A stretch of DNA of 64,000 nucleotides from Zootoca vivipara (lineage: Eukaryota), in the NCBI RefSeq assembly GCF_963506605.1, contig NC_083288.1, forward strand, positions 30,070,001-30,134,000. The letters are read 5' to 3'. A program made the position numbers and the translations under genes. Below the pieces are notes generated by a model. That model had not been told where the DNA came from. It was given only the letters and a program-made list of their open reading frames with translations, and searched no databases. This document shows, in pieces, positions 39,472 through 39,878 of the stretch (within the stretch, counting starts at the first letter, position 1; every line of letters starts with the position of its first letter).

Positions 39472-39878
39472 AAGACCCCTTTAAAACTGATAGATGAGAA
39501 GAAAATAAAATGCTGATTGACACATCTAGATTACATCAGAGAAAAAAGGAAACTACCAAACCACCTTAAAATGTTTTAAAATACCTTTGGTGATAAGATT
39601 CAATTTCCTCTCCAGCTACTTTAGGGTATGGTATGATAAAGATGTCAGAATCCAAGCATCTTCTCAACCAAGCTCTTTCAGCCTTCTTGCAGCACTTGCC
39701 ACAGGACATGTAACTGTTTCCCCAGCCTTTAAATAGACTGCATATATGAGGATAATAGTCACTATATTAGCACCAGTAGACATGGGAAGAATCATTCTTT
39801 TAAGTCTTATTTGTCATCTTGGGATCTTACTCCCAAGAGTCCAGCACAAATGATCTGAAAACATTGTTGAAAGTTACT
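39472..39878. promoter_or_regulatory. Conserved element copy 6 (core 39817-39838), 1.4 kb upstream of OR-B1
   Basis: Exact core in diverged flanks. Confidence 0.5.

Follow-up and report, generated by a model that had tools for sequence, protein, structure and literature searches.

The window, by which we mean the whole 64-kb stretch analysed here (C13:30,070,001-30,134,000), occupies one end of a cluster comprising about 100 olfactory receptor (OR) sequences. Its ORs are encoded on the minus strand and match the 7tm_4 domain (Pfam ID PF13853). Nearly all named rows among the best 120 protein matches are OR14-like by their automatic names, placing these receptors in family 14. The named proteins most similar to them, from lacertid and other squamate lizards, are labelled OR14I1-like and OR14A16-like.

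The window also carries eight copies of a 22-mer that forms positions 3 to 24 of a 26-base element, read on the gene strand. All eight were located by the initial annotation and are confirmed here, six being exact, the one at 27675 having one mismatch and the one at 49201 having two, while 100 shuffles of the window gave no match. The features around OR-B1 and the remaining element copies are given below in window coordinates, with mismatches counted against TCCCNNGGGA, which EBF1 is described to bind as a dimer (PMC4312928).

37509-38444, minus strand: OR-B1, an intact family-14-like olfactory receptor of 311 aa (PF13853, E 6.9e-49)
38469-38495, minus strand: CAG acceptor with a polypyrimidine tract, located 24 nt before the ATG of OR-B1 and predicted to end a 5'-UTR intron
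39490-39878, minus strand: paralogous block of about 400 bp, the predicted proximal promoter and non-coding first exon of OR-B1
39579-39587, minus strand: candidate splice donor AAG/GTATTT at element position ~257, common to the B, C, and E subtypes
39729-39735, minus strand: TATA-like TATTTAA, a candidate only, about 105 bases 3' of the element start and found in some lineages only
39815-39830, minus strand: spacer with the invariant A13 and a weaker second O/E-like arm (element positions 11 to 26; column counts over 19 lineages)
39831-39840, minus strand: first arm of the OR-B1 element (positions 1 to 10), a conserved O/E (EBF)-type 10-mer with 2 mismatches to TCCCNNGGGA in this lineage
39841-39856, minus strand: semi-conserved 5' flank with the invariant T(-7), possibly homeodomain- or E-box-like in some lineages
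198-223, minus strand: D-type element copy; the intact OR that it precedes by 3.9 kb is just beyond the left edge of the window (C13:30066312)
17718-17743, minus strand: A-type element copy, an orphan with no OR start within 6 kb downstream
25980-26005, minus strand: D-type element copy, 2.5 kb upstream of OR-A1 (22592-23521)
27673-27698, minus strand: A-type element copy without its own gene; the D-type copy at 25982 follows 1.7 kb downstream
33095-33120, minus strand: D-type element copy, 2.5 kb upstream of the intact OR-A2 (29662-30609)
49199-49224, minus strand: C-type element copy, 2.8 kb upstream of OR-C1 (45480-46427)
56854-56879, minus strand: B-type element copy, 1.6 kb upstream of OR-B2 (54350-55285)

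The initial annotation placed the copies 5' of full-length ORs, which is correct for OR-B1, OR-A2, OR-C1, and OR-B2, but OR-A1 is not intact. The copies at 17720 and 27675 lack a gene of their own, and the copy at 200 serves an intact OR 3.9 kb off, outside the window. OR-A1 (22592-23521, minus strand) has retained an exact element despite an in-frame TGA at codon 195. The A-type blocks number four and are 94 to 95% identical (window 17387-17841 and 27341-27796; C13:30038015-30038470 and C13:30062863-30063318). None is associated with a gene of the A type; one precedes, by 6 kb, an intact OR that differs from its close paralogs in the upstream region. In the B-type copies, 174 to 175 bases read N, starting about 41 bases 5' of each copy, and in the B2 block (window ~56575-56645, minus strand) a 23-bp unit with the candidate donor AAG/GTATTT is triplicated, which could yield alternative first-exon ends.

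The remainder of the window is mixed. It contains three OR fragments. The one at 42120-42938 (minus strand) is a 5'-truncated copy without the element, the one at 49340-49712 (minus strand) is the 5' part of an OR and lies immediately upstream of the C1 element, and the one at 2671-2779 (plus strand) is inverted. Exons of a V2R-like class C GPCR (PF01094, PF00003) are located within the OR cluster at 6575-9990 (plus strand), and a tandem repeat of about 114 bp spans 15243-15691. The regions 13189-14261, 19916-21363, and 51804-53716 are presumably reverse-transcriptase-like LINE fragments, and we take the 330-bp dispersed repeat at 3553-3912 and 35703-36030, which attracts many RNA reads, to be SINE-like.

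Contigs from three unlabelled sequencing runs (X1 to X3, from two studies) cover the copy at 27675, and one X3 contig covers the copy at 25982, showing presence outside the assembly only; one of these runs may be the source of the assembly. For window 29500-33400 no RNA run was listed. In about 6% of each of the raw RNA runs X7 to X9, which carry the label of the same species and come from an unknown tissue, depth on the two ORs and their elements is essentially none, with reads on dispersed repeats only. The ORs are not expressed in these runs, which are therefore uninformative on start sites and junctions.

The element across the OR14 cluster

Across the 1.44-Gb genome, the exact 22-mer is found in 7 copies, and all 13 copies with up to 2 mismatches are located on the minus strand within the OR14 cluster, at C13 30.038-30.138 Mb, including a ninth copy immediately beyond the window end (C13:30134092). 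The 521-base block around the 22-mer likewise has 13 matches, all in the same interval. A degenerate 23-letter pattern matches 28 times, with 28 of 28 in the C13 OR14 cluster, compared to 3 matches for the same pattern read backwards; all these genome counts are lower bounds. Every match falls within C13 29.45-30.14 Mb, and the element is therefore not a dispersed repeat, which the initial annotation had named as grounds for abandoning the idea. No Rfam family matches the 64-kb window. The window copies are young duplicates in units 92 to 97% identical, and the 22-mer is, as the wider comparison indicates, the local form of an older conserved element.

Of 845 candidates from a protein search of the genome for ORs, 127 were scored, and the cluster was covered on either side of 30.174-30.270 Mb, at C13 29.34-30.174 and 30.27-30.30 Mb. 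The 4.5 kb preceding each of the 103 OR starts were searched iteratively until the result was stable, at 50 genes with a match on their own strand. These matches fall in one clade of 53 genes with a support of 0.995 in a tree of 88 of the 89 ORs, one OR cut by the edge of the covered region being omitted. The element is found within 4.5 kb of 47 of the 53 clade genes, at a median distance of 1,856 bases from the ATG (range, 597 to 3,911). Two further clade genes have it at 5.7 and 6.0 kb, and the remaining genes comprise one with a 6-base insertion between the arms, one with a degenerate element, and two without. In total, a homolog of the element lies 0.6 to 6 kb upstream of 51 of the 53 genes on the strand of the gene, 4 of the 51 being identified on extension or by eye. 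None of the 35 non-clade ORs of the cluster (best score, 13.4) and none of 37 further ORs (best score, 7.7) reach the cut-off score of 15.

The 47 element-bearing genes were grouped into 19 lineages. When each lineage in turn is left out of the model, the same site is the best in 4.5 kb in all 19 (scores, 10.3 to 45.7). Among 107 profile matches, 89 are within 6 kb upstream of a same-strand OR, and 9 of the other 18 are reverse-strand echoes of the same sites. The clade genes thus have one element, or a short tandem run, upstream and on the same strand, as expected for a promoter. This supports the initial proposal of a cis-element with an O/E-type site that duplicates along with each OR, the element being found at OR genes only.

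Several members of the cluster depart from this arrangement. Two clade genes without stop codons (C13:29798486, plus strand; C13:29892899, minus strand) have no recognisable element within 9 kb. The intact OR L011 (C13:29975583, plus strand), with its element about 1,570 bases upstream, is the carrier of the 6-base insertion and represents a natural spacing variant. At least five places have an element but no gene, and no sign of selection was seen on these orphan elements.

The largest OR14 subclade has tandem copies, with 2 to 3 copies of a ~47-base unit of the element in 16 of 16 full-length genes, and no other lineage shows a second element match within 100 bases. This subclade, at C13 29.45 and 29.566-29.708 Mb (L072, L043 to L057), represents a natural promoter multimer. 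A sister clade of 10 genes retains the first O/E-like site and its 5' flank, with scores below the cut-off and the homology judged by eye. In the place of the second arm, about 17 bases after the first site, it has a homeodomain-like word resembling TAATTA or TGATTA. The first site, retained here with its flank, may thus be the ancestral anchor. In this sister clade (C13 29.53-29.755 Mb; L079, L041, L042, L059, L060, L028, and L029), the site is mostly 180 to 770 bases from the ATG.

Conservation within the element

The initial annotation asked whether the core is conserved beyond its flanks. Among five subtype representatives, the core has a mean pairwise identity of 94.5%, compared to 63.3% for the block (273 ungapped columns), and is the most conserved window of the alignable part. 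When the columns were permuted 20,000 times, no stretch of 22 columns was ever as conserved, in a test that is post hoc and ignores autocorrelation. Between the 19 lineages, all paralogs within one genome, the identity is 0.84 at the half-site columns, 0.50 at the two middle bases, 0.50 at four-fold coding sites, and 0.27 in the distal flanks, and since the sites were found by similarity, the measured identity is inflated. Position, specificity, and constraint of the element are observed directly in the sequence.

Positions 1 to 10 read RCTCYTGRGA, an O/E-type site, with restricted variation, position 3 being only T or C and position 8 only G or A. The site resembles TCCCNNGGGA and is conserved above its surroundings, although the match is imperfect: no lineage has a perfect copy, the 19 lineages show 1 to 3 mismatches, and 6 of them have 3. 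At most 2 mismatches are found in 13 of the 19, compared to 0.35% of background 10-mers. Compared to the relaxed O/E consensus TCYCNNGRGA, which was chosen after seeing the data, 17 of the 19 first arms have at most 1 mismatch. A model without positions 1 to 10 still locates the exact site in 14 of the 19 lineages, and the O/E result is therefore not purely circular. The constrained half-sites and the free middle fit a bound palindrome, the pattern expected for EBF.

The second arm is less uniform. The initial annotation read both arms as O/E-like sites, and this reading is good for the first, constrained arm but weaker for the second, which has an identity of 0.52, compared to 0.50 at synonymous sites, and 3 of 11 columns at 80% or more (C19, A21, and A24, at 84 to 89%). 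Measured against the relaxed consensus, the second arm has at most 2 mismatches in 16 of 19 lineages, in two registers with a 5- or 6-base spacer. Alone, it locates the site in 6 of 19 lineages. The near-invariant perfect inverted repeat that first drew attention to the locus is a property of the young subclade in the window; all 8 pairs form in only 1 of 19 lineages, with a mean of 4.4 of 8. We regard the perfect repeat as a by-product, because O/E sites are palindrome-like and the young subclade is homogeneous.

Two bases outside the 10-bp consensus, T(-7) and A13, do not vary among the 19 lineages. An E-box (CANNTG at -11 to -6) was considered as a shared flank site and rejected, as it is found in 6 of 19 lineages only. 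Within the 25 bases before the site, TAATY is found in 2 of 19 lineages and TGATH in 8 of 19, compared to a background of 8%; the 5' context of the B type reads N.

A candidate promoter core and its rivals

The element is likely the core of the proximal promoter of this OR14 clade, and its main component is an O/E site to which an EBF dimer is predicted to bind. Most likely it is an ordinary mammalian-type OR promoter core that has apparently been undescribed in lizards until now. Four EBF genes are found in the genome. EBF binding, the start site, and promoter activity are carried over from mouse by analogy.

The gene anatomy is compatible with this reading. In 45 of 47 genes, the 75 bases preceding the ATG contain a pyrimidine tract with YAG, compared to 17 of 141 control windows, and an acceptor just before the ATG points to a 5'-UTR intron and an upstream non-coding exon. 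Counting 3' from the element start, most lineages have candidate donor-like sites at about 100 to 260 bases, and some have TATA-like words at about 80 to 110 bases. In the predicted mechanism, EBF would bind the first arm in olfactory neurons, and a second EBF dimer or another factor may bind the weaker second arm. Transcription would start roughly 100 to 200 bases downstream of the element, and the transcript would consist of a short non-coding exon spliced over the 5'-UTR intron to the coding exon, with the intron length presumably varying with repeat insertions. The element was copied along with each gene duplication. The imperfect match to TCCCNNGGGA, the invariant T(-7) and A13 outside the consensus, the lack of a common clear homeodomain site of the kind usual in mouse OR promoters, the two intact clade genes without the element, and the five or more elements without a gene count against this reading.

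The same constraint could reflect a rigid switch, in which two EBF dimers bind cooperatively to back-to-back arms at a fixed spacing and set the choice probability. This reading, clearly less probable, has in its favour the second-arm fit to the relaxed consensus, its three conserved columns, and the ungapped homology retained across lineages with 50% four-fold identity, but the best O/E register of that arm moves by one base between lineages, its overall identity and its power to locate the site are low, one intact gene tolerates a 6-base insertion between the arms, and the 10-gene sister clade has a homeodomain-like word replacing the second arm. It is improbable that the promoter site serves a factor other than EBF, of the Ikaros, RBPJ, or STAT/BCL6 types, whose sites have a GGGA/TCCC core. 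The imperfect match to the strict EBF consensus and the invariant T(-7) and A13, which EBF leaves unexplained, speak for such a factor. However, RBPJ and Ikaros sites require an A after TGRGA, where the element is free (G in 10, C in 4, A in 4, and T in 1 of 19 lineages), and the joint constraint on both half-sites around a free 2-base middle is the EBF pattern. A paired RBPJ site was rejected, as its consensus requires this A and a much longer spacer, and so was an NF-kB site, which is of the wrong length. Similar matrices, for example those of Ikaros and O/E, are described as inseparable by sequence analysis (PMC3247239).

Neutral paralogy, in which the motif is a leftover of segmental duplication or gene conversion or a dispersed repeat, could account for the youth of the window copies and for the orphans. 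It is largely refuted, and very improbable, given a core identity of 0.945 against 0.633 for its own block, half-sites far above four-fold sites and distal flanks, matches confined to one cluster in the genome, and no Rfam family in the window. We give next to no credence to the reading of the core as a 5'-UTR splice donor within an RNA hairpin and with a YY1 site after it, which the initial annotation had offered as an alternative. In the window subclade, GGA/GTAAGA is present and the 8-bp stem is fully paired, with -12.6 kcal/mol calculated for one of its members. A donor in a hairpin requires an invariant GT and paired arms, but the GT is found in 11 of 47 genes and 3 of 19 lineages, the perfect stem in 1 of 19, and the pair 10-17 is broken in 13 of 19 (an A.C mismatch in 12); the YY1-like CAAGATGG occurs in 9 of 47 genes and 2 of 19 lineages. 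By these counts the donor, hairpin, and YY1 readings all fail, and the better donor-like sites are those downstream of the element.

An extension of the promoter reading, which we consider unlikely though less so than another factor, is that the squamate OR14 promoter grammar (T(-7) flank, EBF site, invariant NCA, and second EBF-like arm) would form a gene-linked choice module. The largest subclade would then have raised its choice probability by multimerising the 47-bp unit two- to threefold, much as engineered tandem repeats increase OR choice in mice, and the orphans would be P-element-like enhancers.

Relation to known receptor promoters and enhancers

Knowledge of OR promoter logic comes almost entirely from mammals. 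A literature search of incomplete coverage found no study of reptile OR promoters, and the squamate OR survey PMC3342882 does not contain the word “promoter”. The proposed mechanism is the expected one and not new in itself. If it is correct, the EBF-based promoter code extends to squamates, the promoters of about 50 unmapped lizard OR14 genes have been located from sequence alone, and the single, tandem, orphan, spacer-insertion, and absent elements form a natural series relating promoter grammar to the frequency of OR choice. A promoter block of mouse OR family 262 was reportedly described by Hoppe in 2003.

In mouse, a conserved O/E site at no more than 200 bp from the start is described for 246 of 314 OR promoters, with 0 to 4 sites per promoter and a mean of 1.38, so that several sites per promoter are ordinary (PMC3247239). 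A promoter of about 300 bp is reported to suffice for OR-like expression, which is lowered by O/E and homeodomain mutations, while tandem homeodomain repeats raise choice (PMC12547500, PMC5318403, PMC7804114). The lizard element resembles the mouse class II OR proximal promoters in its short block (about 300 to 400 bp) upstream of an OR gene, its O/E-type site conserved above the surroundings and sometimes present more than once, and its TATA-like word in a subset. Unlike these, it belongs to a squamate, the whole sequence surrounding the site (about -15 to +45) is homologous over about 50 genes, a common clear homeodomain site is lacking, and the element is known from sequence alone.

A promoter block common within a receptor subfamily, and not between subfamilies, is also described for the V1R genes (PMC3247230), which belong to another receptor family and lineage. 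The Greek Island enhancers are marked by a composite motif of adjacent Lhx2 and Ebf sites (PMC5608512), and the lizard element shares with this motif a stereotyped layout around the EBF site (PMC5608512, PMC7804114, PMC12547500). As described, however, Greek Islands are intergenic, number about one per cluster, and have the homeodomain site directly beside the EBF site, whereas the lizard element is found once per gene, is bound to the gene orientation, and has no adjacent conserved TAAT core, as judged by word counts and not by a composite-motif matrix. The mouse P enhancer is reported to have been found by its likeness to an OR promoter (PMC12547500), so that an enhancer role for orphan promoter copies would have a precedent in the P element.
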